This document shows, in pieces, positions 2,098 to 62,996 of a stretch of 64,000 bases of DNA. Every line of letters begins with the position of its first letter. Position 1 is the first letter of the stretch. The position numbers and the translations under genes are program-made. The DNA lies in the NCBI GenBank assembly GCA_965237955.1, contig OZ250169.1, forward strand, positions 2,976,001 to 3,040,000. The letters are read 5' to 3'. Source of the DNA: Candidatus Marinacidobacterales bacterium (GTDB lineage: Bacteria; Acidobacteriota; Vicinamibacteria; Marinacidobacterales; SMYC01). Under the pieces are notes generated by a model. The model did no database searches. It was not told where the DNA came from and was given only the letters and a program-made list of their open reading frames with translations.

Positions 2098-2151
2098 CGT
2101 CCTGTGCCAAAACTCGGCCCTTTTGAAATAGACCATAAATCAGCAGCTTAG
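2098..2151 (+). repeat. R1 terminus (54 bp: CGTCCTGTGCCAAAACTCGGCCCTTTTGAAATAGACCAYAAATCAGCAGCTTAG); 28 copies in window
   Basis: + starts: 2098, 5485, 7467, 17076, 17800, 19989, 22793, 26103, 26217, 30820, 34042, 47824, 50934, 55820, 60298, 60410, 60769, 61001. - ends: 5802, 11875, 12439, 18461, 26948, 28182, 37562, 48140, 59498, 61345. Some copies keep only the outer 20-30 bp. Confidence 0.95.
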
Positions 2152-2390
2152 TGTCTGTGTTTGCGACCGGGCCAAGGGCCGTAGGCTTTACAATCGTCTG
2201 GCCGAGGGTGTTATCTTCAGTTCCATGATGACGTACCACGTGCAATTCCTACTGCTCGTTCTGGCTGGGTCAACCGCCAGCAGCTAAAGGTTGGTGGTTC
2301 CTGGCGGTTCAGAAAAAGCGAGATCGACCAGTGGGCAGCAGGGAACGCGGCCTGGCCGGATGACACGGGAGAGCCGGTGGAGCGGAAGCA

Positions 2391-5484: not shown

Positions 5485-5802
5485 CGTCCTGTGCCAAAAC
5501 TCGGCCCTTTTGAAATAGCCGATAAATCAGCAGCTTAGCGTCTGTGTTTTGCGACGGTGCCAAGGGCTGTGGGCTTTACAATCGTCTGGCTCGAGGGTGT
5601 TATCTTCGGATCCATCATGACGTACCATGTGCAAATCCTACTGTTGGTCAGGCAGCCGTTGTTCGATCGGGCAGCCCTTGCTGCTCACACAGACCTCATG
5701 GGTGCTTCCGCCATTAAGTGTTGGTAAAATGACGCTAAGACTTTGCGGTGCATTAAATTACAGCCATGGTCTTTCAAAAGGGCCGAGTTTTGGCACAGGA
5801 CG
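5485..5802. mobile_element. 318-bp MITE with R1 inverted termini
   Basis: 31-bp TIR CGTCCTGTGCCAAAACTCGGCCCTTTTGAAA at both ends. A second, inverted copy lies at 47824-48140. No TSD. Confidence 0.85.
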
Positions 5803-9288: not shown

Positions 9289-9412
9289 CGCACTCGCTGG
9301 TATGATCCCCGAGGCGATAGGGGACATCCTTGCGCACGTCAGTGCGTTAACGTCGAACCTCGCTGTCATCTTCACGCTGAACCAAAACACTATGAGGGAA
9401 GGAGATATTTCA

Positions 9413-13637: not shown

Positions 13638-14007
13638 GCGATGAGCCTTCGGTGCCAAGCCAGAAGGGTTTCCGGTGTGACGATACCGGCGACTTCTGCC
13701 AAGAGTTTCCGGCCAAGCGCCTTACCCTTTACCGCGAGCCGACGTCGCTCGTCGTCTGTGAGACGAAGCTTCCTCCCGCAGAGCCGAGCTTTGAGGATTT
13801 TGTTCTCCTCGAGCAAGTAGACGATAGCGGCCTGATGGTCACGCTGGAGCCAACCAGCGATGGCGACGACCAACAAGGTCAAGGGCTGGACCGGCGTGCT
13901 CATGACCGAGGATTCTAGCTCCCATTGGCCAATCAAACGTAGATACGTCTATTCCGAAACGTCCCGGCGGGCCGGTCTTGAGTTCGTTTGTGTTTTTGGA
14001 CACGACG
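13638..14007 (-). mobile_element. Left end (R2: CGTCGTGTCCAAAAAYACAAACGAACTC) plus N-terminal fragment of an rve integrase, cut by a second R2
   Basis: MSTPVQPLTLLVVAIAGWLQRDHQAAIVYLLEENKILK...PETLLAWHRRLIA. R2 termini at 13637(-), 14007(-), 15652(+), 18042(+), 18249(-), 20077(+), 20292(-), 22914/23818(-, intron-split), 28031(+) and 28159(-). Confidence 0.85.
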
Positions 14008-15651: not shown

Positions 15652-16279
15652 CGTCGTGTCCAAAAATACAAACGAACTCTAAGACCCACGCGTCGGGCCG
15701 TCGCCGAGTTCATCTATCATTATTGTGGAGAGCTCAACCATCAAGGTGTGCCTTCTATTTATTCATCCGCGCGCACCGAACTTGATTAGTCTCCGGTCTG
15801 CCGGGACCATGCCGGCATGATTTCGTCGTTTGTTCGCGCTCTCGTCTCTGCCTTCAAGGCTCGTCGCGAGCTGGCTCTCGAGAATGTCGCTCTTCGGCAG
15901 CAGCTCGCCGTCTTCCGCCGTTCGGTGAAACGGACGCGGCTCTCGAATGTCGACCGCGAGTTTTGGGTGCTGTTGCGGGTACTTCCGCCATTAAAGTGTT
16001 GGTGAGATGACGCTAAGACTTTACGCTGCATTAAATTACAGCCGAAATAGCGCTCGCGACCTTCGCCGCGCGCTAAATGGAGCGTAAGCGGCTTTTTTGC
16101 AAAGGGATACGTACACATCACCAACAGCAAATAGCGCAAGCACCAAACAGTCGCACGAGCGAGCCTCTCCACGTTACCTAAGACGCCGGTGGCGTCGTCG
16201 GGTCAACCGGCACGAAGCAGCCGAGCATGGCAGGTCTAAACCGCGCAATCAACGCCGGATCGACTTTTTGCGGAGCACA

Positions 16280-18041: not shown

Positions 18042-18249
18042 CGTCCTGTCCAAAAACACAAACGAACTCAAGACTGGCGCGCCGGGACGTTTCGGATCAG
18101 AGACGTCTGAGGCTTGGTTGGCCAATGGAAGCTAGAATCCTCGGTCATGAGGAGGCAGAGCCAGCCCTGAACCTTGTTGGTCGTCGCCATCGCTGGCTGG
18201 CTCCAGCGTGACCAACAGGCCGCTACCGTTTGTGTTTTTGGACACGACG
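18042..18249. mobile_element. 208-bp MITE with R2 termini (internally deleted integrase element)
   Basis: Inverted R2 ends enclosing the first codons of the integrase (LVVAIAGWLQRDQQAA). Similar R2-R2 units at 20077-20292 and 28031-28159. Confidence 0.75.
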
Positions 18250-20292: not shown

Positions 20293-21130
20293 GGTGTGAG
20301 GAGCTCGTTGCCGAGACCTTGGTGGTTCCGTTCTGTGTGATAGTGCACTACGTATTCGGTTACCGCTGTGCGCAGGTGTCGCTCACTGAGAGGTACGAAG
20401 CGGTCGAGACACTCTCGACGTATGGAGAGAACGAATCTTTCCGCATATGCGTTCAGATTCGGACTATTAGCGGGAAGGCGAAGAGGCTTCACGCCTGAAT
20501 CTCTCAACAGCCCACGTACCGCCTCGGTGAATAGCGGGTCCCGGTCGTGGATGAGGTATCGCTTGCCAAGGAGGAAACCATCGCATGTCAGTGAGGTTTC
20601 TTGCCACCTGCTTCATCCACTCCCCGTTGGGGTCCGAACCGCCTCGATGGTCCGGTGGAACGACTCGCAAAACTTCGAGTCCCGGTCGTGAATGAGGTAT
20701 CGACTTGAGGACACAAAGCCGACATCTGCCATGGTTACGTTGCGAGCCACTTGAGTCATCCACTGTTCGTTCGGATGCGACGTGATGCCGGCGACGTGGA
20801 CTCGACGGGTAGCCAGGTGTATGAAGAACAGAACGTAGTACGTCACCAACCCGCCCTGAGTCCACACTTCCGTGGTAAAGAAATCTGTCGCCGCGAGGAC
20901 GTCCATGTGCGAGCGGATGAACTCCCTCCACGTCGTGTTCTTCCGACGCTCTGGTGCGAGCGGAATGCCGTGGCGTTTCAGAATGTTACCGACGGTTTGG
21001 TCGGCCACTTCATGCCCGAGGTTGGCTAGCGCTCCGGCAATCCGGTCGTAACCCCAGGACTTGTTCTCCTTGGCGAGACGCACCACTAGCTCTTCGATGT
21101 TCGGCGTCGACCCGCGGTCTCCCTGTATAC
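20293..21130 (-). pseudogene. Two fused rve-integrase fragments
   Basis: 20293-20637 nearly duplicates 46887-47232. 20640-21130 encodes LAKENKSWGYDRIAGAL...ATDFFT...LIHDRDSKF from a second family member. Confidence 0.8.
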
Positions 21131-21149
21131 GGACGGTTCTTGGAGCCAT

Positions 21150-21358
21150 CGGCTACCATCAGGTCCTGCACCCAATCCTAAATCTCCAGCCGCGCCCACT
21201 TCTCCAGCGACTCCCAAGCCACCCTTGACGAGCTCCGTCGTCTTGTGGTCTTTTCCTTCATGGCGGTGTCTCCTTCCGTAGGTCCCTTCAGGCCGTGTTC
21301 GACGACGCGGAAGGTTACTCCACCTTTACTCTATTTCCACATCTTCTGAGGGTAGCTC
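21150..21358 (-). mobile_element. Probable IS256-type left end with decayed N-terminus
   Basis: MKEKTTRRRSSSRVAWESLEKWARLEI*; layout resembles 46540-46636. Confidence 0.45.
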
Positions 21359-25950: not shown

Positions 25951-26530
25951 TGAACCGCCCCGGGAATCCCGGAGACTGTTTCAGTTGAGTCTCGCCACCT
26001 CGAGCGAGCCTTGTTGCGAGCGATAGTAGTTCAGTTCGTGCTCGACCGGTGGGATGTTTCCGATCGGTTCCAAGAGTCGTTGCGTGTTGTACCAGTGCAC
26101 CCCGTCCTGTGCCAAAACTCGGCCCTTTGAAATAGACCACAAATCAGCAGCTTAGACGCCCTTGGAATCCGCGCGGAAGCGAGGGTATTTCACGCCGCAG
26201 GGCTGCCTTCCGACCCCGTCCTGTGCCAAAACTCGGCCCTTTTGAAATAGACCATAACTCAGCAGCTTAGCGTCTGTGTTTGCGACCGGCCCAAGGGCCG
26301 TGGGCTTTACAATCGTCTAGCCCGAGGGTGTTATCTTCAGATCCATGATGACGTACCCCGTACAATTCCTACTGCTCGTTCTGGCTGGGTCAGCCGCCAG
26401 CAGCAGGAAGTGATTGTCCAGACGGAGACCGGGCGAACCACCATGGACGCTTCGAGAGCAGGTCCGGCGAATCGCGGAAGCCTGTGGCGCTCCGATTAAC
26501 TAGCCGGTCCAATCGGGCTATAATCTCGAC

Positions 26531-31081: not shown

Positions 31082-31516
31082 GTGATGCCGCAGGATACAG
31101 GGGTTGGGCGGAACGTCGTTCTGGACGGTTTGGACTTCGCCAGCTTGCGGCGGGTCTGGGAGCAGACCTTTGGGGCTGCTCCTCCAAGCTCGCTCTCTCG
31201 CGTTTTCATGCGCCGCGTTCTTGCGTACGAACGCCAGTGCCGGACCCTTGGCTGGCATTCGGCCACAACCCGGCGCGCTCTGGCTGCCATGGCGAACGAG
31301 ACACCAAGCTCCGGCGCTCTCGCAGGGTCCGTTTCTGCCGGCACCCATCTCGTCCGCGAGTGGAATGGCCGGACCTACCAGGTCGAGGTAATCGACAACG
31401 GCTATCGGTTCGATGGCAAAACCTATCCGTCCCTCACTACCATCGCAAAGCGAATCACCGGCACCCACTGGTCAGGACCACGCTTTTTCGGTCTCACGCC
31501 CAAGCGCAAGGCCTAA
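31082..31516 (+). CDS. DUF2924 domain protein
   Basis: As 677-1111. Confidence 0.85.
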   Translation: MMPQDTGVGRNVVLDGLDFASLRRVWEQTFGAAPPSSLSRVFMRRVLAYERQCRTLGWHSATTRRALAAMANETPSSGALAGSVSAGTHLVREWNGRTYQVEVIDNGYRFDGKTYPSLTTIAKRITGTHWSGPRFFGLTPKRKA

Positions 31517-31517
31517 C

Positions 31518-33179
31518 ATGAAGAAGATCCGCTGTGCCATCTATACGCGAAAGAGTGCGGAAGAGGGTCTCGAACAGGAGTTCAACTCCCTCGATGCGCA
31601 GCGAGAAGCCTGCGCCGCGTATGTCGCGAGCCAGAAAGCGGAGGGCTGGGTGCTGCTGCCAACCGTCTACGAGGACGCGGGGCTCTCGGGAGGAACCCTG
31701 GAGCGCCCGGGCCTGCAGCGCTTGCTCGCCGACATCGACGCAGGTCTCGTCGACCAGATTGTGGTCTACAAGGTCGACCGGCTGACCCGTTCCCTCTCCG
31801 ACTTTGCAAAGCTCGTCGAGCGGCTCGAGGCGGCCGGCGCGGTTTTCGTCTCGGTGACTCAGTCCTTCAACACCGCGACCAGCATGGGACGACTGACGCT
31901 GCATATGCTGCTGTCCTTCGCACAATTCGAACGCGAGGTCACGGCCGAGCGGATCCGCGATAAGGTCGCTGCCTCCAAGCGCAAGGGACTATGGATGGGC
32001 GGCCGCGTACCGCTCGGCTATGAGAAGGACGGGCGCACGCTGCGCATCAACGAGGCTGAGGCCGAAACGGTCCGGACGCTCTATGCGCTGTACCGAAAGC
32101 ACGAAACGCTCCGGCAGGTGAAGGCCGAGGCGGACCGTCTGAGACTGCGTACCAAGCAACGCTTCACCGCGGATGGAACCCGAACGGGCGGGCTGCCGTT
32201 CCGTCGCGGACACCTCCACTGCCTGCTGACCAATCCTCTCTACGCCGGCCGCATCCGGCACCAGAGGCGTGTCTACGAGGGCCAGCATCCATCGATCATT
32301 GCTCCGGAGCTCTGGGACGCGGTCCAAACGCAGCTGCAGGCAGGGGCTGCCAAACCAAGGAGACGCACGACGAAGGGCCGTGCCGCCCGTTCCCCACTGG
32401 CAGGCAAGCTCTTCGACGAGACCGGGGACCGGCTGACGCCGAGCCACACCAAAAAGAAAAACGGGCAACGGCTCCGCTACTACGTCTCCCGGCGCCTCAT
32501 CCAGCACAGTGGCCAAAAGGACCTCTCCGGCTGGCGACTGCCCGCCCCGATGCTGGAACAGACCGCCGTGCATCTCATCCGACAGCATGTGGATGCCACG
32601 ACCTTCTCGGCCTCGTTGATCCACACTCCGACGATGCAAGAGCTCGCCTCGGTGCGTCGCTTTTTAGACGGGCTGTGTTCCGGTAGTAATGATGATAGTG
32701 CCTCGGCAGCCCCCCTGCTCCGTCTTATCCGGCGGGTCGACATCAGCCCCGGCTCTGTGTCCATCCTGCTCGACCGCAATGCGTTCGCTGCTTGCCTCTC
32801 TATGGGACCCGAACGCATTCGCGAGGATGCACTCCGCATCCTCGCACCGTTCCGCTTGCGTCGACGCAGCGTCGAGACCAAGCTCGTTCTGGGCAACCCC
32901 ACGAAATCCGTCGACCGCACACTCCTGCGCAATATCAGAAACGCCCGCTCCTGGCTCGGCCGAATCAAAGCAGGCAAAACCTATGAGCAGATTGCCACCG
33001 AAAACGCCATCCCAACGGACCGCGTGCGCAAGGCAATCCGTTATGCCTTCCTGGCTCCCGACATCGTCCGCGCCATTGTCGAAGGCCGCCAGCCCGTTGG
33101 GCTGACCTCGAGCTACCTCTTGCATCATCCGCTTCCCGACGATTGGGAGAAACAGCGAGTGCTCGTCAAAACGCTGTGA
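31518..33179 (+). CDS. Large serine recombinase (resolvase plus recombinase domains), intact copy
   Basis: RCAIYTRKS, VVYKVDRLTRS, FAQFEREVTAER and LTNPLYAG motifs; C-terminal AFLAPDIVRAIVEGRQP...LPDDWEKQ. Confidence 0.92.
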   Translation: MKKIRCAIYTRKSAEEGLEQEFNSLDAQREACAAYVASQKAEGWVLLPTVYEDAGLSGGTLERPGLQRLLADIDAGLVDQIVVYKVDRLTRSLSDFAKLVERLEAAGAVFVSVTQSFNTATSMGRLTLHMLLSFAQFEREVTAERIRDKVAASKRKGLWMGGRVPLGYEKDGRTLRINEAEAETVRTLYALYRKHETLRQVKAEADRLRLRTKQRFTADGTRTGGLPFRRGHLHCLLTNPLYAGRIRHQRRVYEGQHPSIIAPELWDAVQTQLQAGAAKPRRRTTKGRAARSPLAGKLFDETGDRLTPSHTKKKNGQRLRYYVSRRLIQHSGQKDLSGWRLPAPMLEQTAVHLIRQHVDATTFSASLIHTPTMQELASVRRFLDGLCSGSNDDSASAAPLLRLIRRVDISPGSVSILLDRNAFAACLSMGPERIREDALRILAPFRLRRRSVETKLVLGNPTKSVDRTLLRNIRNARSWLGRIKAGKTYEQIATENAIPTDRVRKAIRYAFLAPDIVRAIVEGRQPVGLTSSYLLHHPLPDDWEKQRVLVKTL

Positions 33180-34813: not shown

Positions 34814-35845
34814 CTAAGCGGCCATCGGCGACTGGAATTCACTCTCGCGGGTGGAGACGGCCCAGACGATCCGGGCGAGTTTGTTGGCGACAGCAATCAC
34901 GGCCTTGTTGTGTCCCCGCGAGCGGTGGACCTTCCGAGCCCAGGCGCGGAGCTTGTCGGGCGGGCTCTTACTGACGTTCGCCGCGCGGAGCACGGCGCGC
35001 CCGCCCTGGGTGAGGAGCATACGGAGGTAGGAGTCGCCACGCTTGGTGATGCGTCCGAGGCGGCGAATGTCGCCACTGGAGTTTTCCTTGGGAACTAGGC
35101 CGAGGTAGCTCGAGAAGCGGCGCCCCGATGGGAAGCGGCGAAGATCGCCGACGAAGCCCACGATGGCGGTCGCGGTCAGAAGTCCGATGCCGGGAATGGC
35201 GAGAAGTCGTTGGACTTCAGGAAGCTGCTTGGTGAGCGCCTTGAGCTCGTGCTCGATGCCAGCGCACTTGTCCTTGAGTTCTCGAATCTCGGAGCAGGCA
35301 TCACGGAGATGCGAACGGAGCACGTCGGGCAAATCAGAATCAGCGTCTTCGACGAGTTCGAAGAGGGCGGGCACGACGAAGTGAGCGCCCTTTGGGATGA
35401 TGAATCCGAGTTCGCGCAGGATCCCGCGTACGGCATTGATGCGTGCGGTCCGTGTGGAGAGCCATCCTGAGCGCAGGCGATGGAGCGCGGCGAGGCTGTG
35501 CTGGTGCACGGACTTAATGGGCACGGGAAGAATCTCCTCGTTCCTGTAGGCCTCGAGCAACGCTTTGGCGTCGGCGCGGTCGTTCTTGCTCCCGCGTCGA
35601 TAGGGCCTCACGAGGTGAGGTGGGAGCAGGACGACGTCGTGTCCCAACCTTCGGAACGTCCTTGCCCAGAAGTGAGCAGAGCCGCAGGCTTCGAGAAGCA
35701 CGGTGGCAGCGCTCTGTTTGGCAAAAAACGACACCAACTTGGGTCGACTCACACGGAGTTGCTTGGACACCTTCCCCGCTTCTCCCGAGATGGCAATCTC
35801 GAAGACGTTCTTTGCAAGATCCACAGCGATCGTCGTATCTTTCAT
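34814..35845 (-). CDS. IS110 family DEDD recombinase/transposase
   Basis: AVDLAKNVF, LEACG, KNDRADA, IPGIG and ENSSG motifs; AGGAGG RBS. Confidence 0.95.
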   Translation of the reverse strand: MKDTTIAVDLAKNVFEIAISGEAGKVSKQLRVSRPKLVSFFAKQSAATVLLEACGSAHFWARTFRRLGHDVVLLPPHLVRPYRRGSKNDRADAKALLEAYRNEEILPVPIKSVHQHSLAALHRLRSGWLSTRTARINAVRGILRELGFIIPKGAHFVVPALFELVEDADSDLPDVLRSHLRDACSEIRELKDKCAGIEHELKALTKQLPEVQRLLAIPGIGLLTATAIVGFVGDLRRFPSGRRFSSYLGLVPKENSSGDIRRLGRITKRGDSYLRMLLTQGGRAVLRAANVSKSPPDKLRAWARKVHRSRGHNKAVIAVANKLARIVWAVSTRESEFQSPMAA

Positions 35846-35973
35846 TCGGACTCCTCCTTTTCGATGCGTATTCGACTGACTTTGGCACATCGATGCCGTC
35901 TATGTCAGCGGAGGAGTCCATTCCATCACTTGATGGCGGAAGCACTTGATGGCGGAAGCACCGAATAGAGTCC

Positions 35974-37455
35974 ATGCCGACGGCAAGAACCAGCGAGAGC
36001 CACCCACTGCGCATCACGGCGATGACCCTGGGCGACGGCCGGGGCCGGATCGGCTTCTCGCAGTGCCCCGGTAGGATCGATCGCTACGCAATATCCGGGC
36101 CCTGGAAGCGGGATCTCGACACCGACCTCGACGCGATTCAGCGCTGGGGAGCGACTGCGGTGGTCAGCCTGATCACCCACGAAGAGATCCCCGATCTGAA
36201 GGTGCACGATCTCCCGAGGGCGGTTCGAGACCGGCACATGGAGTGGTGGCATGCCCCGATTCCCGACGGAGAGGCACCGGAACAGGACTTCGAGCACGCC
36301 TGGAAGGCCACCGGCGAGTCCATCCGGAACCGGCTGCGGCTCGGCTTCGACGTGCTGCTCCACTGCCGGGGTGGTCTGGGACGCGCCGGGACCATCACAG
36401 CCCGCCTGCTGGTGGAGTTGGGCGTGCAACCGGACGATGCGATCCGCCGCGTGCGCGACGCCCGCGAATGGACCATCGAGAACGGCTCCCAGCTGGCTCA
36501 CGTGAGGCAGTGTTCGGCACAAGCACCATCGGTTCCATCCCGGACCGCGGACGACATCCACGACCGGGCGCTCGGGGCCTTCCTCGGTCTGGCGGTGGGC
36601 GACGCGGTCGGCACGACGCTCGAATTCTGCTCCCGCGATACGCAGCCGCGTCTAGAAGACATGGTCGGTGGCGGCCCGTTCGATCTGCCGGCCGGCGCTT
36701 GGACCGACGACACGGCCATGGCGCTGGCCCTGGCCGACAGCCTGGCGGAATCCAAGACGCTCGACTGCCGGGACCTGATGGACCGTTTCGTGAAGTGGTG
36801 GCGAGACGGAGACTACTCGTGGAGCGGAGACTGCTTCGACATTGGAAACACGACCTGCCAAGCGCTCACCCGGTACCTACGGACGGGTGACCCGGTCGCG
36901 GGTTCGACCGATCCCTTGAGCGCAGGCAACGGCTCGCTGATGCGGCTCGCCCCCGTTGCGCTCCGGTTCAGGCACGACCGGCCGCGCCTGCTCGCGGCAG
37001 CCGCCGACCAGTCCCGGACGACCCACGGAGGCGAGGAAGCAGTGGACGCCTGCCGGGCGTTCGGCGCACTCCTGGCAGACGCCATCGCCGGGTCACCGTT
37101 CTCGGACGTTCTGGCTCCGAGACGGTTCACGGGAGCGGCGGCAATCACTCAGGTCATAGCCGGCAGCTGGCGAGGACGGACACGGGATACGATCCGCTCC
37201 AGCGGGTACGTCGTTCACACGCTCGAAGCCGCCATCTGGTCAGTCGCCCGCACCGGAGACTTCCGCGGCGCGGTGCTGCTCGCGGCCAACCTGGCCGACG
37301 ACGCCGATACGGTAGCAGCAGTGACGGGGCAGCTCGCCGGCGCCCTCTACGGCCTGAACGCCATCCCCGACCACTGGCGGGAACGCGTTGCCTGGAAGGA
37401 TCGACTCCTGGCAGCGGCGCGGCGGTTGCTGTCGGAACCCCTTGCCGACCGGTAG
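35974..37455 (+). CDS. Protein phosphatase (CDKN3/DSP-like) fused to ADP-ribosylglycohydrolase
   Basis: HCRGGLGR P-loop; GDAVG, WTDDT, GNGSLMR and DADT motifs. Confidence 0.9.
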   Translation: MPTARTSESHPLRITAMTLGDGRGRIGFSQCPGRIDRYAISGPWKRDLDTDLDAIQRWGATAVVSLITHEEIPDLKVHDLPRAVRDRHMEWWHAPIPDGEAPEQDFEHAWKATGESIRNRLRLGFDVLLHCRGGLGRAGTITARLLVELGVQPDDAIRRVRDAREWTIENGSQLAHVRQCSAQAPSVPSRTADDIHDRALGAFLGLAVGDAVGTTLEFCSRDTQPRLEDMVGGGPFDLPAGAWTDDTAMALALADSLAESKTLDCRDLMDRFVKWWRDGDYSWSGDCFDIGNTTCQALTRYLRTGDPVAGSTDPLSAGNGSLMRLAPVALRFRHDRPRLLAAAADQSRTTHGGEEAVDACRAFGALLADAIAGSPFSDVLAPRRFTGAAAITQVIAGSWRGRTRDTIRSSGYVVHTLEAAIWSVARTGDFRGAVLLAANLADDADTVAAVTGQLAGALYGLNAIPDHWRERVAWKDRLLAAARRLLSEPLADR

Positions 37456-44691: not shown

Positions 44692-45778
44692 TGCCTTGGT
44701 GCACAACTCGCGATCTCGGTCCACAATTGTCCTGTACTCGCGGATTCGAGGTTTCCCATGAGCATTTTCAAACGCACTCAGCGGAAGTATGTGAAGAAGG
44801 CCTATCGCGTGAGGAATTGGCGTGAATATGAGGCGGGTCTACGCAACCGTGGGAGCCTGACCGTCTGGATCTCGCTCACCGCCGGCAAGCTTGTGAACTG
44901 GGACGCGCCCCGGCCGAGGAGGAGGAAACCGGGCCGTCAACGCAAGTACTCGAACCACGCCATCGAGACGGCTGTCACCCTGGGCATGGTGTTTCATCTG
45001 TCATCTAGGCAGAGCGAGGGATTGCTGCGATCGTTGTTCGCTCTGATGAAGCTAGACAATGATGTGCCCGATCACACCACGATTTCGAGGCACAAGGCGA
45101 AGCTGGGTAAGGTCCCCTTCTACCAAGACAAGCAGAAGACGCCGTTGCACATCTTGATCGACAGCAGCGGTCTCGCTGCCCACGCCGGCCAGCTGCGCAG
45201 AGCACCAAAGAGCAGGGACTATCGCAAGCTCCATCTGTGTGTCGACGAGCAGAGTGGCGAAGTCGTCGCCGGCGAGCTGACGAGCAAAAGAGCCCGCGAT
45301 TCATCGCGGGTTGCATCGCTTGTCGGACAGATCGACAGTCCCATCTCATCGGCCAGAGCTGACACCGCATACGACGCCAGCGGCGTCTATGAGGCGATCG
45401 AGAATCACAGCGCTCATCGCTCGCCGAGGGTGCTGATACCGCCGCGCAAGGGCGCCCAGCTCGCATAGGGGCCGGCGAGCAGCCGACAGCGCAATCGCAA
45501 CATTGCAGCACAAGCTCGGCTCGGCAAACGAAAGTGGCACACAGAATCGGGCTACAGCAAACGGAGCAAAGTCGAGACAACGTTCCATCGCTACAAGGCT
45601 ATCGTGGGCTCAGCGATGCGAGCGAGAGGGTTGGCGGCACAGAGAGTCGAGGCAAGGATCGGGTGCAAGATTCTCAACACCATGACGGCGCTCGGGATGC
45701 CTGATAGCGAGATGATCGGATGATGGGAGTCGGGGCCAAGCGAGCTCTCGGCCTCTATCGGAGTTGTGCACCAAGGCA
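44692..45778 (+). mobile_element. IS5 family element A, copy 3 (nonsense mutation)
   Basis: 1087 bp, same TIRs; TCG to TAG at 45466-45468. Confidence 0.9.
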
Positions 45779-46636
45779 GTACCCCGGCCACTTCTCGAGC
45801 GCTTTCGTCAGCCCCTTGTGGCCATCGCTAATCACTAGCTTGGGAGCCCGGAGTCCTTGAGCCTGGAGTCCCTCCAGCATGGAGCCCCAATGCGTCGAGG
45901 CTTCGCTCACCGCCAGACGCAATGACAACAGACGTTTCTGCCCGTCTGGCGTGACCCCGAGCGCGGCCAGTACGGGTACGCTGATCACACGCTTCGCCAT
46001 CCGCACTTTCAGGTGGAAGCCGTCCAGGTAAACGATCGCGTAGACCTCCTCGCTGAGAGCACGGTTCTGCCATTCCTCGAAGCGCTCCTTCAGCCGACTA
46101 ACCACGCGAGACACCGCGCTCTTCGATAGGTGCTCCTCACCGAGCAGTGGTTTCAGCGCTTTGCGGATCCGGCGGCTATTCGCGCCCGACAAGTACGTCC
46201 CCAAGATCGCCTCGTCGACCTCACGAGTCCGGCGCGCGTACCGGGGCAACAGCTCGCTCCTGAACTCTGTCGTTTCTCCCGTTTCCTCGTCTCGCACGCG
46301 GGCTCGTGGCACTCGGAGCTCGCGAGTTCCCACCGATGTCGTCACGCGACGGGTTTCGGCTCCGTTGCGATACCCACGGCGGTCTTCCGCACGCTCGTAG
46401 CTACGACACCCCAGCGCTTGGTCGACTTCTTCCTCGAGCACGACCTCGATCGCCTCCAGTACCCGCTTACGCAGCCGAAGTTGGACGAACTCCCGGTACT
46501 CGCTTACAGACTCCTTCGATATGGTGGTAGGCTTCTTCATGGCGTAATCCTCCTCCTCGCCTTTACAGGCGTGGTTTGGTTTTTCTTAACCGGAGGTTAC
46601 GCCATTCTTATTTCCACGGGAATCGGGACAGATCCC
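45779..46636 (-). mobile_element. IS256 family element, 3'-truncated
   Basis: GYRNG, LRVPRAR, YLDG and VISDGHKGL motifs (ORF starts at 46540); left end GGGATCTGTC; cut by IS5. Confidence 0.88.
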
Positions 46637-46798
46637 GACCGGGCCAAGGGCCGTGGGCTTTACAATCGTCTTGGGCGGGCGGGTCGTCACCATGCAGATG
46701 ACCACCTAGTCGAGAGCGAATATCGAAGCGTGTTCCTGAAGCGGTTTCCACGCTACGCCGGTCGAGCCCGCCGAGGGGCTACCGTCGCCGGCGACAAT

Positions 46799-47823
46799 CT
46801 ACGCGGCACGGCAGTAGTAGTTGAGAATGCCCCCAAGTCGCTCTCGCGACACGATGGGGCCAGCGTCATTCGCGCTTGCCGGCAGAGGTGTGAGGAGCTC
46901 GTTGCCGAGACCTTGGTGGTTCCGTTCTGTGTGATAGTGCACTACGTATTCGGTTACCGCTGTGCGCAGGTGTCGCTCACTGAGAGGTACGAAGCGGTCG
47001 AGACACTCTCGACGTATGGAGAGAACGAATCTTTCCGCATATGCGTTCAGATTCGGACTATTAGCGGGAAGGCGAAGGGGCTTCACGCCTGAATCTCTCA
47101 ACAGCCCACGTACCGCCTCGGTGAATAGCGGGTCCCGGTCGTGGATGAGGTATCGCTTGCCAAGGAGGAAACCATCCCACATGTCAGTGAGGTTTCTTGC
47201 CACCTGCTTCATCCACTCCCCGTTGGGGTCCGACGTTATCCCACCGATGCACACGCAGCGAGTGGCGATATCGATGACAAACAGGACATGGTAGCGGACG
47301 AGGCCGAACGGGTTCACAACCTCGACGGTGAACAGGTCTGTCGCAGCGATGGCGCCCCAATGAGCCTTGATGAAGGTGCTCCACGACATGCTCCTGCCCC
47401 GCTCCGGCGCAGGAGCGATACCGTGCTCGGCGAGGAGCCTCTTGATAGTGTTGCGTCCGAGTTCATGTCCTAGGTTCTTGAGTGCGCCTCGCAGGCGCGT
47501 ATATCCCCACGTCGGGTTCTCCCGCGCCACGCGCACAATGAGCTCACGGATGTCCTTCGCCGTCGGAGGTCGGCCTGGACTCCGGTTCTTGCTGCCATCG
47601 TACTTGGCTGCGATGAGGTGGCGGTACCAGCGCAGAAGCGTAGCGGGTGTGGCAACGGACGCAATCTGGGCCAGCGCCTCGCGGCCCAAAGCCTGGGCCT
47701 TGACGGCGAGCCTGCGCCGGTCGTCGTCAGAGAGCCTGAGACGCTTGCCCCGAAGCCCGGCTCGGAGCACACGGTTCTCCTCTTGCAGGTAGTCGATCAC
47801 ATCCTGCTGCTGGCGGTTGACCC
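46799..47823 (-). pseudogene. rve-type DDE integrase/transposase, nearly complete, N-terminus removed by an R1 MITE
   Basis: [34 protein letters not shown] and [13 protein letters not shown] motifs. Confidence 0.9.
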
Positions 47824-48140
47824 CGTCCTGTGCCAAAACTCGGCCCTTTTGAAAGACCATGGCTGTAATTTAATGCACTGTAAAGTCTTAGTGTCATTTT
47901 GCCAACACTTAATGGCGGAAGCACCCATGAGGTCTGTGTGAGCGGCAGGGCTGCCCGATCGAACAACGGCTGCCTGACCAACAGTAGGAATTGCACATGG
48001 TACGTCATGATGGATCCGAAGATAACACCCTCGGGCCAGACGATTGTAAAGGCCACGGCCCTTGGTACCATCGCAAAACACAGACGCTAAGCTGCTGATT
48101 TATCGGCTATTTCAAGAGGGCCGAGTTTTGGCACAGGACG
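47824..48140. mobile_element. R1 MITE, copy 2 (inverted relative to 5485-5802)
   Basis: Reverse complement of 5485-5802 with scattered substitutions. Confidence 0.85.
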
Positions 48141-52084: not shown

Positions 52085-53116
52085 CTAAGCGGCCATCGGC
52101 GACTGGAATTCACTCTCGCGGGTGGAGACGGCCCAGACGATCCGGGCGAGTTTGTTGGCGACAGCAATCACGGCCTTGTTGTGTCCCCGCGAGCGGTGGA
52201 CCTTCCGAGCCCAGGCGCGGAGCTTGTCGGGCGGGCTCTTACTGACGTTCGCCGCGCGGAGCACGGCGCGCCCGCCCTGGGTGAGGAGCATACGGAGGTA
52301 GGAGTCGCCACGCTTGGTGATGCGTCCGAGGCGGCGAATGTCGCCACTGGAGTTTTCCTTGGGAACTAGGCCGAGGTAGCTCGAGAAGCGGCGCCCCGAT
52401 GGGAAGCGGCGAAGATCGCCGACGAAGCCCACGATGGCGGTCGCGGTCAGAAGTCCGATGCCGGGAATGGCGAGAAGTCGTTGGACTTCAGGAAGCTGCT
52501 TGGTGAGCGCCTTGAGCTCGTGCTCGATGCCAGCGCACTTGTCCTTGAGTTCTCGAATCTCGGAGCAGGCATCACGGAGATGCGAACGGAGCACGTCGGG
52601 CAAATCAGAATCAGCGTCTTCGACGAGTTCGAAGAGGGCGGGCACGACGAAGTGAGCGCCCTTTGGGATGATGAATCCGAGTTCGCGCAGGATCCCGCGT
52701 ACGGCATTGATGCGTGCGGTCCGTGTGGAGAGCCATCCTGAGCGCAGGCGATGGAGCGCGGCGAGGCTGTGCTGGTGCACGGACTTAATGGGCACGGGAA
52801 GAATCTCCTCGTTCCTGTAGGCCTCGAGCAACGCTTTGGCGTCGGCGCGGTCGTTCTTGCTCCCGCGTCGATAGGGCCTCACGAGGTGAGGTGGGAGCAG
52901 GACGACGTCGTGTCCCAACCTTCGGAACGTCCTTGCCCAGAAGTGAGCAGAGCCGCAGGCTTCGAGAAGCACGGTGGCAGCGCTCTGTTTGGCAAAAAAC
53001 GACACCAACTTGGGTCGACTCACACGGAGTTGCTTGGACACCTTCCCCGCTTCTCCCGAGATGGCAATCTCGAAGACGTTCTTTGCAAGATCCACAGCGA
53101 TCGTCGTATCTTTCAT
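52085..53116 (-). CDS. IS110 family recombinase, copy 2 (element 51775-53199)
   Basis: Protein identical to 34814-35845. Confidence 0.95.
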   Translation of the reverse strand: MKDTTIAVDLAKNVFEIAISGEAGKVSKQLRVSRPKLVSFFAKQSAATVLLEACGSAHFWARTFRRLGHDVVLLPPHLVRPYRRGSKNDRADAKALLEAYRNEEILPVPIKSVHQHSLAALHRLRSGWLSTRTARINAVRGILRELGFIIPKGAHFVVPALFELVEDADSDLPDVLRSHLRDACSEIRELKDKCAGIEHELKALTKQLPEVQRLLAIPGIGLLTATAIVGFVGDLRRFPSGRRFSSYLGLVPKENSSGDIRRLGRITKRGDSYLRMLLTQGGRAVLRAANVSKSPPDKLRAWARKVHRSRGHNKAVIAVANKLARIVWAVSTRESEFQSPMAA

Positions 53117-53405
53117 TCGGACTCCTCCTTTTCGATGCGTATTCGACTGACTTTGGCACATCGATGCCGTCTATGTCAGCGGAGGAGTCCATTCCATCAC
53201 TTGATGGCGGAAGCACCTCCCGGACTCGACGACGACCTCCTCGGCCATGGTACAGTATCGACGCTGGCGCCGCCTGGTGATCCCAGGCTGGACACATGGT
53301 TGGCGCTTTACGCTCGGACATTGTTCGCGGACGAGATCGCAGAGTGTGTGGCTTTCTGGACAGCATGCGAGACCTGCAACAGACTCTCTGGTAGCCGTGG
53401 CTGTT

Positions 53406-55926: not shown

Positions 55927-57116
55927 CTACCGGTCGGCAAGGGGTTCCGACAGCAACCGCCGCGCCGCTGCCAGGAGTCGATCCTTCCAGGCAACGCGTT
56001 CCCGCCAGTGGTCGGGGATGGCGTTCAGGCCGTAGAGGGCGCCGGCGAGCTGCCCCGTCACTGCTGCTACCGTATCGGCGTCGTCGGCCAGGTTGGCCGC
56101 GAGCAGCACCGCGCTGCGGAAGTCTCCGGTGCGGGCGACTGACCAAATGGCGGCTTCGAGCGTGTGAACGACGCACCCGCTGGAGCGGATCGTATCCCGT
56201 GTCCGTCCTCGCCAGCTGCCGGCTATGACCTGAGTGATTGCCGCCGCTCCCGTGAACCGTCTCGGAGCCAGAACGTCCGAGAACGGTGACCCGGCGATGG
56301 CGTCTGCCAGGAGTGCGCCGAACGCCCGGCAGGCGTCCACTGCTTCCTCGGCTCCGTGGGTCGTCCGGGACTGGTCGGCGGCTGCCGCGAGCAGGCGCGG
56401 CCGGTCGTGCCTGAACCGGAGCGCAACGGGGGCGAGCCGCATCAGCGAGCCGTTGCCTGCGCTCAAGGGATCGGTCGAACCCGCGACCGGGTCACCCGTC
56501 CGTAGGTACCGGGTGAGCGCTTGGCAGGTCGTGTTTCCGATGTCGAAGCAGTCTCCGCTCCACGAGTAGTCTCCGTCTCGCCACCACTTCACGAAACGGT
56601 CCATCAGGTCCCGGCAGTCGAGCGTCTTGGATTCCGCCAGGCTGTCGGCAAGGGCCAGCGCCATGGCCGTGTCGTCGGTCCAAGCACCGGCCGGCAGATC
56701 GAACGGGCCGCCACCGACCATGTCTTCTAGACGCGGCTGCGTATCGCGGGAGCAGAATTCGAGCGTCGTGCCGACCGCGTCGCCCACCGCCAGACCGAGG
56801 AAGGCCCCGAGCGCCCGGTCGTGGATGTCGTCCGCGGTCCGGGATGGAACCGATGGTGCTTGTGCCGAACACTGCCTCACGTGGGCCAGCTGGGAGTCGT
56901 TCTCGATGGTCCCTTCGTGGGCGTCGCGCACGCGGCGGATCGCATCGTCCGGTTGCACGCCCAACTCCACCAGCAGGCGGGCTGTGATGGTCCCGGCGCG
57001 TCCCAGACCACCCCGACAGTGGAGCAGCACGTCGAAGCCGAGCCGCAGTCGGTTCCTGATGGACTCGCCGGTGGCCTTCCAGGCGTGCTCGAAGTCCTGT
57101 TCCGGAGCCTCTCCGT
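55927..57116 (-). pseudogene. 5'-truncated phosphatase/ADP-ribosylglycohydrolase copy
   Basis: Matches 36266-37455. Confidence 0.85.
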
Positions 57117-58201
57117 GGCGTTGTTGCACCGCTCTGGCTGAGAGCGAAATCCGCCTATGGTGGTGGCCGAGGTATGTTCGAGCATGAAGTATCCCAAGCG
57201 CTGCCAGTACAAGCACGCGAAGCAGAAGAAGTACCACGTTCGCAACTGGGCGGAATACAACGAAGGGCTGCGCCGCCGGGGCGATTTGACAGTCTGGTTT
57301 GACGAGGAGGCAATCGCGAACTGGAAGGCCGACAAGACCGGTAAGCCTGGCGGTCAACGGGTCTATTCAGACATGGCGATTGAAACGGGCCTGGTTGTCC
57401 GGATGGTGTACAAGCTCGCCTACCGACAAACCGAAGGCTTCTTGCACTCGATCGCCTCGCTTCTCGGGCTCGGTATCGAGATCCCGGACTACTCGACGTT
57501 GTGTCGGCGCTCGAGGTTGCTCCGCAAGAAGCTGCGGATTCCGAAAGCCGCGAGCACTCAACCCATCCACCTGATGATCGATAGCACGGGCTTGAGGATT
57601 CATGTTGGAACCGCCCGCAAACCGCCAAAGCTGCGCGCATGGCGCAAGTTGCACATCGCCGTTGATCGCGAGACAGGGAACATTGTTGCGTCCAAACTGA
57701 CGGCGTCACGAGCTCGCGACGCAACCCGAGTCCTCTCTTTGCTAACACAGATTCAAGCACCTCTAGTGTCGGTGGCGGCGGACAGTGCATACGACAAGGA
57801 AGCGGTCTACGAAGCCATCGAAGCGCACAGTCCTGGACGAAGGACGCGCGTGGTGATTCCGCCGCAACGAAACGCGACGCTCAGTCAGAATTCGAACACC
57901 GCCATGCAGGAGCGCGATCGCCATATTCGTGCAATCGAAAGACACGGCCGACGTGAATGGTACAAGCTCTCAGGCTACACCAAGCGAAGCATGGTGGAGA
58001 ACGCGGTCTATCGTTACAAGGCGATCATCGGGCCGGAGATGCGGGCTCGAACGTTGGCGAGGCAACGAGTTGAACACCGAATTGGGTGCGAGATACTCAA
58101 CAAGATGGCTGCGCTCGGGATGCCCGATACGTACTGCGCCGGGTGACTCTGCAACCGGCACAGGGAGGTCAGCGATTTGCTCCGGGCCGTGCAACAACGC
58201 C
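57117..58201 (+). mobile_element. IS5 family element B, copy 2 (transposase 57184-58146)
   Basis: 1085 bp, same TIRs. Confidence 0.92.
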
Positions 58202-59391
58202 ACGGAGAGGCACCGGAACAGGACTTCGAGCACGCCTGGAAGGCCACCGGCGAGTCCATCAGGAACCGGCTGCGGCTCGGCTTCGACGTGCTGCTCCACT
58301 GCCGGGGTGGTCTGGGACGCGCCGGGACCATCACAGCCCGCCTGCTGGTGGAGTTGGGCGTGCAACCGGACGATGCGATCCGCCGCGTGCGCGACGCCCG
58401 CGAATGGACCATCGAGAACGGCTCCCAGCTGGCTCACGTGAGGCAGTGTTCGGCACAAGCACCATCGGTTCCATCCCGGACCGCGGACGACATCCACGAC
58501 CGGGCGCTCGGGGCCTTCCTCGGTCTGGCGGTGGGCGACGCGGTCGGCACGACGCTCGAATTCTGCTCCCGCGATACGCAGCCGCGTCTAGAAGACATGG
58601 TCGGTGGCGGCCCGTTCGATCTGCCGGCCGGCGCTTGGACCGACGACACGGCCATGGCGCTGGCCCTTGCCGACAGCCTGGCGGAATCCAAGACGCTCGA
58701 CTGCCGGGACCTGATGGACCGTTTCGTGAAGTGGTGGCGAGACGGAGACTACTCGTGGAGCGGAGACTGCTTCGACATCGGAAACACGACCTGCCAAGCG
58801 CTCACCCGGTACCTACGGACGGGTGACCCGGTCGCGGGTTCGGCCGATCCCTTGAGCGCAGGCAACGGCTCGCTGATGCGGCTCGCCCCCGTTGCGCTCC
58901 GGTTCAGGCACGACCGGCCGCGCCTGATCGCAGCAGCCGCCGACCAGTCCCGGACGACCCACGGAGCCGAGGAAGCAGTGGACGCCTGCCGGGCGTTCGG
59001 CGAGCTCCTAGCGGACGCCATCGCCGGGTCACCGTTCTCGGACGTTCTGGCTCCGAGACGGTTCACGGGAGCGGCGGCAATCACTCAGGTCATAGCCGGC
59101 AGCTGGCGAGGACGGACACGGGATACGATCCGCTCCAGCGGGTACGTCGTTCACACGCTCGAAGCCGCCATCTGGTCAGTCGCCCGCACCGGAGACTTCC
59201 GCGGCGCGGTGCTGCTCGCGGCCAACCTGGCCGACGACGCCGATACGGTAGCAGCAGTGACGGGGCAGCTCGCCGGCGCCCTCTACGGCCTGAACGCCAT
59301 CCCCGACCACTGGCGGGAACGCGTTGCCTGGAAGGATCGACTCCTGGCAGCGGCGCGGCGGTTGCTGTCGGAACCCCTTGCCGACCGGTAG
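58202..59391 (+). pseudogene. 5'-truncated phosphatase/ADP-ribosylglycohydrolase copy
   Basis: Matches 36266-37455; mirror image of 55927-57116. Confidence 0.85.
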
Positions 59392-60172: not shown

Positions 60173-61442
60173 ATTCGCCCGTCTGGTGCAGAAGATAGGT
60201 TGGAAAGTCAGCTCCACCCTTGCCCTCTTGCCGGTCCCGGACTTAGAGTGTCGCGATGAGCTGGCGGCCATACCTCTACGCCGAGACTCAGCGTCCCCGT
60301 CCTGTGCCAAAACTCGGCCCTCTTGAAATAGACCACAAATCAGCAGCTTAGTGTCTGTGTTTGCGACCGGACCAAGGGCCGTAGGCTTTACAATCGTCTG
60401 GCCCGAGGGCGTCCTGTGCCAAAACTCGGCCCAGCCGGCATCGACGAAAGAACTGCGCTTCTCGAAATCAGGCTCAAACTCTAGCAGGCGAACGGGTTAC
60501 ACGGCAGGCGCCAACATTTGACTGCGGAAGCACCCGAGTTCCATTCTTCGCCGCTGTACGCTACTAGGTGGAGGACCGCGATATGCGTCTCCATCGCGCG
60601 CAATCGACCGAGAGAACGACGGCATAGCCTGTGAGAGGTAAGATAAGATGCGACACTTCCCCATTCCCGTATGGATCGCTGTGCTCGCCACGGGCTCGTG
60701 GCACAACCCCGCCACGGCCCAGACGTCGTGGCGGGGCTTGGTGGTTGCCCCCGAATCCCGTTGCTCCCCGTCCTGTGCCAAAACTCGGCCCTCTTGAAAT
60801 AGATCATAAATCAGTAGCTTAGTGTCTGTGTTTGCGGAGGTGCCAAGGGCTGAGCGCGAACAAACGACGAAATCATGCAGGTATGGTCCCGGCAGACCGG
60901 AGACCGATCAAGTTCGGGGCGCGCGGATGAATAAATAGAAGGCACAACCAGTCGACTTGCTTCCGCATCCCTCTTTGTCGCCCCTTGTTGGGCCCGACCC
61001 CGTCCTGTGCCAAAACTCGGCCCTTTTGAAACAGACCGCAAATCAACAGCTTAGAGGCCCTTGGAATCCGCGCAGAATCCAGGGTATTTCGCGCCGCAGG
61101 GCTGGCTTCCGACCCCTGGGCTGCGGGTGGCGGGCGACAGGCCCACCGGGGGTGCGCACGGCCGGCTCAAATCGGCTGCGGGGCGAGCTTGCAGGCAACG
61201 AACTACGCACCCGGAAGGAATACGTATCCGACCGCGATGCCGGATTCAAGCAGCCCTTGGAAAGGTGCAAACTGCTGACCCGCTGGGCGTTCGAGTATTT
61301 TGACCAGACGGAATGTCGTGGCTGTCCGAGTTTTGGCACAGGACGGGGAATAGGCGAGATCCCGCATGCCACCACATGCGGTTCGTTGTGACGAACTGGC
61401 CCGGTGACCAATTCACCGTCGCCGCATCTTTGGAGGTGATCA

Positions 61443-62996
61443 GTGCGTATTCTACCCGCTTTGTTTCTGTTTTTTACTTTCCATTCGGTTCTGAGCGCTC
61501 AACCGTTCCGTGAGTCCAGGACCTTGTGGGCTAGCGACCCCGCGGAAGTGCCAGCGCTCGCCAGTGAGATCGACCGGATGCTGGACACCGATCAGCTTCA
61601 GTTCAAGCGTTCGCAGACGGACGGCACTTTCCCCGGCCGGACCCACGAACGAATGAACCAGTACCATCAAGGCGTCCGGGTTTTTGGCGGACAACTCGTG
61701 TGGCAGAAGCAGTCCGGGTTGGTGCTGTCGGCAACCGGCAACATCTACGAGGCTGTCGATGTCGGCGTGACCCCAACTCTCACGGTTGCCGAGGCGGAAG
61801 CGCGTGTGCTCGCACTTGAGGGACCGGAAGCGTTCATCGGCGGCGAGACCGAACTGGTGATCCTGCCACTTACCGATAGATATGCGCTCGCGTACTACGT
61901 TCGGACACGCAGTCCAGGTGCACTCCAGGTGTCGTTTATCGACGCCCATTCGGGCGAGCGACTTCTCACGTGGAACGATCTACATACTCAACATGAGGGC
62001 GTTGGCCTCGGGATCGGCACATGGGGAGACAGGAAGAAGATGACCTCTCAGGAGGCCGTCGGCACGTTCAGAGCCGTCGATACCATCCGGCCGTTCGGCA
62101 TCAAGACCTATGACGTGAACTTCAATGCCTATGCTTGGAATAATTACATGGCTGACACCGACGCATTTCTAGCGACCGACCGCGACAATGAGTGGACGGA
62201 TGGAGCCGTCGTGGATGCCCATGTGTATTCCGGGTACACATACGACTACTACTTCAAACGCTACAACCGGTACGGCATTGACGACCTAGGGCTCGTCGCT
62301 ACCAACTACGTTCACTTCTTACCGCAAAGCGCGGGGTTCAACAATGCCTTTTACGACTCATACGACAACTCAATGAACTATGGCGATGGGGACGGCATAG
62401 AGTCCACCTTCAACTCAGCAGCTCTTGATATTGTCGCGCACGAGATCACTCATGGAGTGACGAATCACTCCTCAGATCTGATCTACCGCAACGAGTCCGG
62501 GGCGCTCAACGAGGCGATATCCGACATCATGGGAGTGGCCACGGAATTCTTCTTTCAGCCTGTCGGGGACGGGAGACTGCAAGCTGACTGGGTAATGGAC
62601 GAGGACACTTTTATTAACTTTGGAGAGTATATCCGGTCTTTCTCCGACCCATTAAGCGCAAGGTACCCGAAACCGGATCACTACAGAATCCGGTACCTCG
62701 GAGACCTGGACCGTGGGGGTGTACATATCAACTCCAGCATTGTGAACCACGCTTTCTACTTGATGGTCATGGGCGGCACCAATCGGGTGTCCGGCATCAG
62801 CGTCAACGGCATCGGGTTCGAGCAAATGGACCGGATGGAACAGATCTTCTACAGGGCCTTCATGTACTACTTGGTCCCGAGCTCCAACTTCTCCGATGCT
62901 CGTGAAGCCACGATTCGCGCCGCAAGGGAACTCTACGGCGCCGGCGTCGAAGAACAGACCGTCCGTGCCGGATGGAATGCGGTAGGTGTCCAGTGA
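61443..62996 (+). CDS. M4 family (thermolysin-like) metallopeptidase, paralog 2
   Basis: Signal peptide; NNAFY, HEITH, GALNEA and GVHINSSI motifs. Confidence 0.92.
   Translation: MRILPALFLFFTFHSVLSAQPFRESRTLWASDPAEVPALASEIDRMLDTDQLQFKRSQTDGTFPGRTHERMNQYHQGVRVFGGQLVWQKQSGLVLSATGNIYEAVDVGVTPTLTVAEAEARVLALEGPEAFIGGETELVILPLTDRYALAYYVRTRSPGALQVSFIDAHSGERLLTWNDLHTQHEGVGLGIGTWGDRKKMTSQEAVGTFRAVDTIRPFGIKTYDVNFNAYAWNNYMADTDAFLATDRDNEWTDGAVVDAHVYSGYTYDYYFKRYNRYGIDDLGLVATNYVHFLPQSAGFNNAFYDSYDNSMNYGDGDGIESTFNSAALDIVAHEITHGVTNHSSDLIYRNESGALNEAISDIMGVATEFFFQPVGDGRLQADWVMDEDTFINFGEYIRSFSDPLSARYPKPDHYRIRYLGDLDRGGVHINSSIVNHAFYLMVMGGTNRVSGISVNGIGFEQMDRMEQIFYRAFMYYLVPSSNFSDAREATIRAARELYGAGVEEQTVRAGWNAVGVQ

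Follow-up and report, generated by a model that had tools for sequence, protein, structure and literature searches.

A CGT-ended DDE insertion sequence of Candidatus Marinacidobacterales with one-sided targets and junctions that may form one end at a time

The window analyzed here is a stretch of 64,000 nucleotides from a Candidatus Marinacidobacterales genome. It carries the remnant of an insertion sequence that we call the R1 element, after the repeat at its ends. Further R1 ends, R1 MITEs and parts of sister elements (R2, R3, R5) lie elsewhere in the window. The features are the following.

46637..47823, minus strand: R1 element remnant, nucleotides 175-1361 of the 1,428-bp element, 99.2% identical to an intact genomic copy
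46799..47821, minus strand: DDE transposase, codons 17-356 and stop in an open frame, with D178, D244, E279 and R at E+7 (356-aa numbering)
46637..46671, plus strand: right terminal inverted repeat without its tip, inner positions 68-102
45779..46636, minus strand: IS256-family remnant adjoining the cut right R1 repeat
44692-45778: IS5-family element (IS903-like) cutting the IS256 remnant
47824..48140, no strand: 317-bp R1-R1 MITE, with 15 full copies genome-wide
5485..5802, no strand: second copy of the R1 MITE, 95.9% identical to 47824-48140
2098..2284, plus strand: R1 left end into the first transposase codons, matching element nucleotides 1-192
26217..26414, plus strand: R1 left end and first codons, matching element nucleotides 1-202
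60298..60412, plus strand: R1 left end matching element nucleotides 1-115, cut by another R1 end at 60410
13638..14007, minus strand: left end with R2 (CGT) and the adjoining 5' part of a sister element, 95.9% identical to nucleotides 1-370 of the intact 1,349-bp R2 element
18042..18249, no strand: 208-bp R2-R2 MITE
15747..15977, plus strand: left end with R3 (TGT) and the 5' part of a distantly related sister transposase, whose ATG is at 15817
16148..16279, minus strand: R5 (TGT) end of another sister element, matching the end of a 1,449-bp R5-R5 element

The right tip of the window copy was lost to IS256. On the other side, the 317-bp R1 MITE takes the place of its left end and its first 16 codons. 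The MITE also gives the copy an in-frame ATG at 47860 (frame 46799-47860, minus strand), from which a shortened transposase could be made. The initial annotation saw no intact integrase in the window. This stands insofar as the copy is without its own ends; however, the frame is open for 340 codons and all the catalytic residues are kept. We also considered the R1 at 47824 as the copy's own end and rejected it; it belongs to the MITE. At three loci (47823/47824 in the window, and C1 399444 and 3602740), an R1 end is attached at an identical position within the 5' end of the transposase gene.

The module at 46637-46671 was expected to be the one that follows R1 at 2098, 26217 and 60298. It is present and adjoins the IS256 end at 46636, but it is of the right-end type, whereas those three are of the left-end type. 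The match to the element extends beyond the start codon at 2098 and 26217, and ends after 115 nt at 60298.

Several genes are repeated in the window, and several of these repeated genes sit near R1 ends. A phosphatase and an ADP-ribosylglycohydrolase gene occur three times (35974-37455, 55927-57357 and 58177-59391). Genes for a thermolysin-type peptidase (9203-10960, 61443-62996), a serine recombinase (1113-2126, 31413-33179) and an IS110 transposase (34814-35890, 52085-53161) occur twice each.

R1 forms both ends of a 1,428-bp insertion sequence with a single DDE gene. It had been proposed as the right end. It does terminate the element coding for this rve transposase, but on both sides. The inverted repeats are about 102 bp long, and the two element ends match across that length. 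A tblastn search of the genome with the window protein gave 240 pieces, about 20 of them near full length at 96-100% identity. Among the top 20 near-full matches, an inward-facing R1 lies about 176 nt ahead of query residue 1 in 18 and a downstream R1 follows in 17. The genome has 21 full-length copies, and 17 keep an open frame of at least 350 codons.

The R1 18-mer occurs 437 times exactly and 511 times with at most two mismatches in the 8.13-Mb genome. A reversed control pattern had no match across 41 genomes, so the abundance of R1 is far above chance. Among the 511 ends, 99 continue as left ends and 63 as right ends; the remaining 349 cease to match the element within 150 nt. Most of them (494/511) are inside dense regions of the genome.

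The intact transposase consists of 356 amino acids in one continuous frame, with helix-turn-helix and rve domains. Its catalytic residues are D178, D244, E279 and R286 (E+7), with D-D(35)-E spacing. By sequence, no significant match was found among solved structures. The predicted model (pLDDT 74.9, pTM 0.52), used for the fold class only, suggests a long N-terminal helix and a fold like those of TnsB, IstA and retroviral integrases. A promoter scan of one intact copy gave no sites. Contigs from RNA runs cover the element; contig cover alone is no sign of transcription. In viral contigs, three loci carry homologues with ends not placed.

R1, R2, R3 and R5 had been read as one family of ends belonging to this integrase. 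They do belong to one superfamily; nevertheless, each of R2, R3 and R5 terminates a sister element that codes for a transposase of its own. The R2 element (1,349 bp, CGT ends) encodes a protein 55-58% identical to that of R1. The others have TGT ends: R5 (1,449 bp, 33% identity), R3 (27-29%) and a further element, F30 (1,346 bp, 31%). The ends R1, R2 and R5 are located where they had been described and align with an A-run at positions 11/12-15, and R3 is without the A-run. The R2 end at 14007 and the R3 end at 15747 were correctly placed ahead of transposase genes. The former begins a 370-nt piece from the 5' end of its element, and the latter is followed by the ATG at 15817 that opens the sister-transposase fragment. 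On the other hand, the end at 18042, taken for an R1/R2 hybrid, is an ordinary R2 variant and not necessarily a hybrid, with the C at position 5 found in 17% of 175 R2 ends.

Ends of F30 and R3 join repeatedly after nucleotide 21 inside the R1 repeat (C1 705872, 802910, 412961 and 7854382). This position is a hot spot for sister elements. One F30 copy (C1 691958-693303) lies within another F30, between 572-bp direct repeats. A further subgroup, with about 50% identity and a different inner repeat, has ends and a transposase fragment in the window at 61310, 26811 and 20637-21151, and is mostly CGT-tipped across the genome.

We found a homologue of the R1 transposase in 18 of 41 genomes. The exact R1 20-mer is present in 10 genomes, the same 10 that carry the transposase at 97-100% identity; this is the co-occurrence that the initial annotation proposed as a check. 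The 20-mer is absent from the 8 genomes with distant homologues only and from the 23 without a homologue. Near-identical copies are found in Candidatus Marinacidobacterales records, and the 97-99% identical protein is present across two families, which suggests a recent horizontal spread. The wider family has 2,159 representatives (E ≤1e-30) in a library clustered at 50%. Plasmid proteins of Streptomyces and Bradyrhizobium annotated as "integrase core domain-containing protein" are of the same superfamily (30-41% identity).

The 5'-CGT terminus had been noted as a departure from the usual TG..CA, and it is real. The first base is C in 99% of the 511 R1 ends, and CGT is found in 99% of the R1 and R2 ends. 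Empty alleles were compared with R1 ends at 180 junctions. In 93 of them the alleles diverge exactly at the C, in 61 they match 1-8 bases further, and in 26 they diverge 1-3 bases earlier; the base at the tip position of the empty allele is C in 71/180. These alleles rule out that the C comes from the target and that the true end is GT or an inner TGT. The 3' terminus would then be CG and not CA.

The same tip is found beside more distant homologues. With profile position 1 masked, 93 of 99 ends begin with CGT beside homologues below 90% identity (44-64%, one at 89%). They come from Acidobacteriota, Myxococcota, Planctomycetota, Gemmatimonadota and Pseudomonadota. We made a quick tree with 64 of 76 rows and without the ISfinder set; the other 12 rows were partial, duplicate or weak. 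All 29 CGT-labelled rows fall on one side of a branch (SH-aLRT 97), with 14 rows unlabelled. In the same tree, a long branch (SH-aLRT 100) divides all 52 family rows from the 11 IS481-like rows and one IS3 row. The CGT tip very probably holds throughout this clade.

We examined whether the element duplicates its target. In 119 inward-facing pairs of the same family, overlaps of 0, 1, 2 and 3 bp numbered 85, 18, 9 and 7, equal to shuffles. Duplications of 1-30 bp at the same copy, also with 0-3 bp of slack or split between copies, were never above chance. Neither did 470 R1 flanks show an excess of partners at any length from 4 to 13, nor did 181 R1 ends with a known empty allele have a partner end at a consistent offset. 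Outside this set, none of 42 homologous elements reaches a 3-bp duplication; 21 of the 42 are from outside the near relatives and 4 from the window's own genome, and the right end of one (L036) is probably mis-called. The Streptomyces plasmid copies have none either (0/6).

Clean empty sites are also missing. None was found among 97 testable R1 pairs within 130 bp, nor for 16 R1 insertion sequences, 12 MITEs, 15 R2 and 8 F30 elements. Long direct repeats up to 200 kb flank only 1 of 119 pairs, the 572-bp F30 case, and 59 related elements have no direct repeats up to 8 kb with both sides. Gene continuity across the elements was also examined. With coding matches on both sides of 53 of 175 elements, there was no clean split, and the 7 shared subjects were self matches, the 572-bp case or paralogues. 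A Pfam search on 72 junction frames found a Peptidase M50 (L105) and a recombinase (L101) cut at the junction, with no continuation in the locus. The junction frame of L083 is weaker, with one homologue aligned into the element side.

Controls from the same genome give two different messages. Two TGT elements keep duplications of 5 bp (5/6) and 4 bp (11/14), 16/20 together (Fisher P 1e-17); the control sets 481a, 481d and 481e were left out of this comparison. Of the TGT control copies inside the same scrambled dense regions, 6/7 keep their duplications, so the assembly is not scrambled at repeats. In contrast, the IS903-like elements IS5a and IS5b have no matching 9-bp duplications at the same copy (0/80 and 0/51), also in quiet regions. 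A 9-bp partner elsewhere in the genome was found for 14/234 IS5a flanks and 4/151 IS5b flanks. IS5a, IS5b and IS110 are likewise without matching flanks and clean empty sites. The other flank lies within 5 kb of the empty allele about as often for R1 (13/97) as for IS5a (3/38) and IS5b (6/46). These three controls rule out the missing duplications alone as proof of a special mechanism, and the single-end argument therefore rests on target symmetry and on other genomes. A lack of target duplication across the family is probable.

The target of R1 reads roughly S-G-A-C-C-C, junction, N-G-T. At 164 targets, A is at 67% in position -4 and C at 60, 88 and 75% in positions -3 to -1; beyond the junction, G is at 66% in +2 and T at 62% in +3. 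The motif is alike at left and right R1 ends, and the same upstream bias is found beside homologues. A two-ended reaction with a fixed stagger should give a symmetric logo even where partners have been lost. In such a logo the C at -2 would be mirrored by a column rich in G, and G stays at or below 48% in every upstream column, so there is no mirror symmetry. The best mirror correlation was 0.27 for R1 (n=164). The controls reached 0.87 for IS5a (n=61) and 0.69 for IS5b (n=63), both at 9 bp, and 0.59 for IS3 (n=20) at 3 bp. A mirror site at spacings from -280 to +280 was found in at most 11 of 163 R1 targets (background 3.1; own site 123), and for IS5a at 9 bp in 31/61. A rare conventional reaction of both ends would explain no more than about 7% of the testable R1 junctions at any single spacing. 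The targets of R2, R3, R5 and F30 show no symmetry axis, in small sets (37, 30, 17 and 15).

Changes at the flanks were seen in six Streptomyces plasmid copies of a TGT-ended sister, which are 99-100% identical to each other and about 35% identical to the window protein; this evidence concerns the sister and not R1 itself. Compared with NBC_00826 and NBC_00257, NBC_01369 misses 24,936 bp exactly at the left tip. Likewise, NBC_01243 misses 6,405 bp exactly at the right tip compared with NBC_00053. NBC_00826 and NBC_00257 have a common left flank and different right flanks. We infer that these differences are deletions, and with it the direction of change. The right flank of NBC_00057 begins at the first base past the element in many other plasmids that are without the left flank; from these alignments, this copy appears to be at a plasmid fusion point. 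No record joins both flanks among the best 30-40 matches listed of 44, 18, 289 and 209. Another plasmid sister, in Streptomyces sp. NBC_00841 (L024:8961-10130), is a single copy with putative junctions whose best-scoring ends are TGT on the left and CGT on the right.

Neighboring R1 ends share orientation in 49/68 cases (P 0.0004). In a first region (C1 7.6-8.13 Mb plus 0-1.2 Mb) the R1 transposase is on the minus strand in 43/52, compared with 22/39 for IS5a and 23/45 for IS5b. In the second region (C1 2.0-3.9 Mb) the bias is absent for R1 (18/31). R2 is on the minus strand in 13/17 in the first region and on the plus strand in 14/17 in the second, which fits the replichores, as read from skew, in 27/34. 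IS5 elements and long ORFs are evenly split between strands, and F30 has no excess of the same orientation (5 vs 12).

Back-to-back R1-R1 spacers of 24, 25, 27 and 28 bp, with the next at 105, make up 4 of 11 cases (C1 326432, 7838746 and 7854559; L043:2581). The 25-bp junction is also in contigs of run X1. In the genome and loci these are the shortest spacers, and none is a clear left-right pair of full elements. There was no short-spacer junction among the joints listed for four runs, whose contigs drop rare forms.

From these junction statistics, we lean towards a transposase that transfers each end on its own to a C-rich, one-sided target. In this reading, the enzyme would nick at the CG-3' tip of one end, and the freed 3'-OH would attack one phosphate of the target. 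The resulting branch might then be completed through replication by the host or through processing of the junction, and come out as a deletion, tandem duplication or fusion of replicons. After two events of this kind the element would stand between unrelated DNAs, with its flanks swapped one after the other, and tandem duplications would raise the copy number. The MITEs and orphan ends would likely be used in trans. If single-end joining holds, R1 would be a genome-rearranging agent rather than an ordinary inserter. The same-orientation clustering of R1 fits this model; the second region and F30 do not. Against it also stands that only one duplication-element-duplication structure was seen in 119 pairs.

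Other mechanisms were weighed against the same data. The element could combine a rare insertion of a copied-out circle, as in IS3 and IS481, with frequent single-end attacks that replace nearly all junctions. The transposase is closest to the IS481 and IS3 profiles, and an element 97-99% identical over several genera needs some entry route. IS3-family elements are described as having asymmetric first-strand transfer and off-target attack, and such attack alone should not delete the donor (10.1101/2023.06.07.543989). We consider this combination unlikely, given that no short-spacer R1-R1 junction was seen in the genome and loci or in the listed contig joints of the four runs, and no duplication is left in the 42 and 6 copies elsewhere. 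Rather unlikely too is a two-ended replicative copy-in, like that of IS6/IS26 or IS903, with its fixed duplication erased by repeated intramolecular events. It draws on the loss of nearly all paired duplications in IS5a and IS5b, and on the same-orientation clustering of R1. Moreover, intramolecular copy-in by IS6 is known to delete flanks and separate the repeats, although it yields 8-bp repeats (PMC7986276). However, this process should leave a mirror-symmetric logo, which IS5a and IS5b have and R1 has not. The flanks show no partner excess at lengths 4-13, and 0/21 elements of unrelated genomes keep a repeat.

It is also improbable that a single event involves both ends acting at two different sites a variable distance apart, such as the arms of a replication fork or existing breaks, with a deletion or duplication arising as the element inserts. 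That would predict a one-sided motif without fixed spacing, and the 572-bp repeat around one F30 copy and the R2 orientation along the replichores agree with it. An IS481 copy between 60-kb duplicates without target duplication, reported as an exception (PMC11708052), also speaks for it. Nevertheless, in the Streptomyces copies one junction is kept and the other is changed, and this calls for events in sequence. The strong sequence preference at the junction speaks against plain ligation into random breaks, and the R1 orientation departs from the skew in the second region. Very improbable, finally, are a blunt insertion with a 0-bp duplication at a palindromic target and an assembly in which flanks are wrongly joined at repeats. 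The assembly is repeat-rich, and both flanks often read as mirror images through their shared C-rich bias. But the empty alleles do not run on into mirror sequence (G at +1 in only 11%) and none is clean. Other multi-copy elements keep their duplications in the same regions, and independent plasmid records give the same pattern. Joining of one end at a time thus remains the reading that we prefer for R1. Its extension is more doubtful: the whole family, with CGT and TGT subgroups in many phyla, may have given up concerted two-end integration and spread by deletion, tandem duplication and replicon fusion only, one clade cleaving at CG-3' instead of CA-3'.

Compared with IS481 (NF033577), the R1 element has the same plan of one open frame with helix-turn-helix and rve DDE domains in about 1.2-1.4 kb, a single gene (356 codons) between terminal inverted repeats (102 bp). 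This profile is the best-scoring one for the 340-aa window protein, at 100.4 bits, far below its cut-off of 224. The 5'-TGT termini of IS481 are found only in the sisters R3, R5 and F30, and not in R1 and R2 (CGT). R1 is also without the IS481 duplication, which is of 2-15 bp and mostly 6 (PMC10045372). Its predicted long N-terminal helix is another difference from IS481. A long branch separates the family from IS481 proteins above the cut-off, with only 11 IS481-like rows in the quick tree.

With IS3 (NF033516), the R1 transposase shares D-D(35)-E and the K/R at E+7. The score is 83.9 bits against a cut-off of 160, and one continuous frame replaces the orfA/orfB split with frameshift. The CGT tips, the absence of a duplication and the target without mirror symmetry (the IS3 control peaks at 3 bp) also differ. 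The single-end first step of IS3 is nonetheless the likely chemical model for R1. The proposed mechanism is similar to the asymmetric start of IS3-type copy-out, only directed at distant DNA (10.1101/2023.06.07.543989). The ends of IS3, IS481 and most IS1202 begin with TGT, and IS1202 has TGT or TA/GT tips, Q at E+7 and 5-28-bp repeats (10.1101/2022.12.17.520857). IS1202 has a related DDE domain in a single gene; the R1 group differs in its R/K at E+7, its CGT tips and its lack of duplication.

Like IS6/IS26 and IS903, R1 copies are found at deletion and fusion points without matching flanks. Those elements have fixed 8- or 9-bp duplications and a symmetric target, and R1 has neither a mirror axis nor an 8-bp partner excess. 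The Streptomyces and Bradyrhizobium elements are of the same superfamily and without duplication, but differ in their tips (mostly TGT, where resolved), and are annotated as a domain and not as an IS. So, the R1 group works like a relative of IS3 and IS481 and behaves like an adjacent-deletion element, and by these tests it is a member of neither. It is probably an unnamed IS group, set apart by profile scores and ends in a comparison that had ISfinder outside it. We found no description of a CGT-ended IS of this kind in the literature searched, which had most subscription journals, supplements and ISfinder outside it.

Integrase-type DDE enzymes are treated, almost without exception, as joining two ends concertedly with a fixed stagger and as using a terminal CA-3'. 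If the single-end reading is true, this family would lend itself naturally to testing how strand transfer is controlled by the pairing of ends and by the terminal dinucleotide. IS junctions free of duplication, raised as an open question in PMC11708052, would then have an explanation as well. Such genes are annotated only as "integrase core domain" and fall below the cut-offs of both the IS481 and the IS3 profile. Since sister elements are present in cultured Streptomyces and Bradyrhizobium, the question can be tested directly. In the genomes studied here, joining of one end at a time would, if true, explain their scrambled islands.
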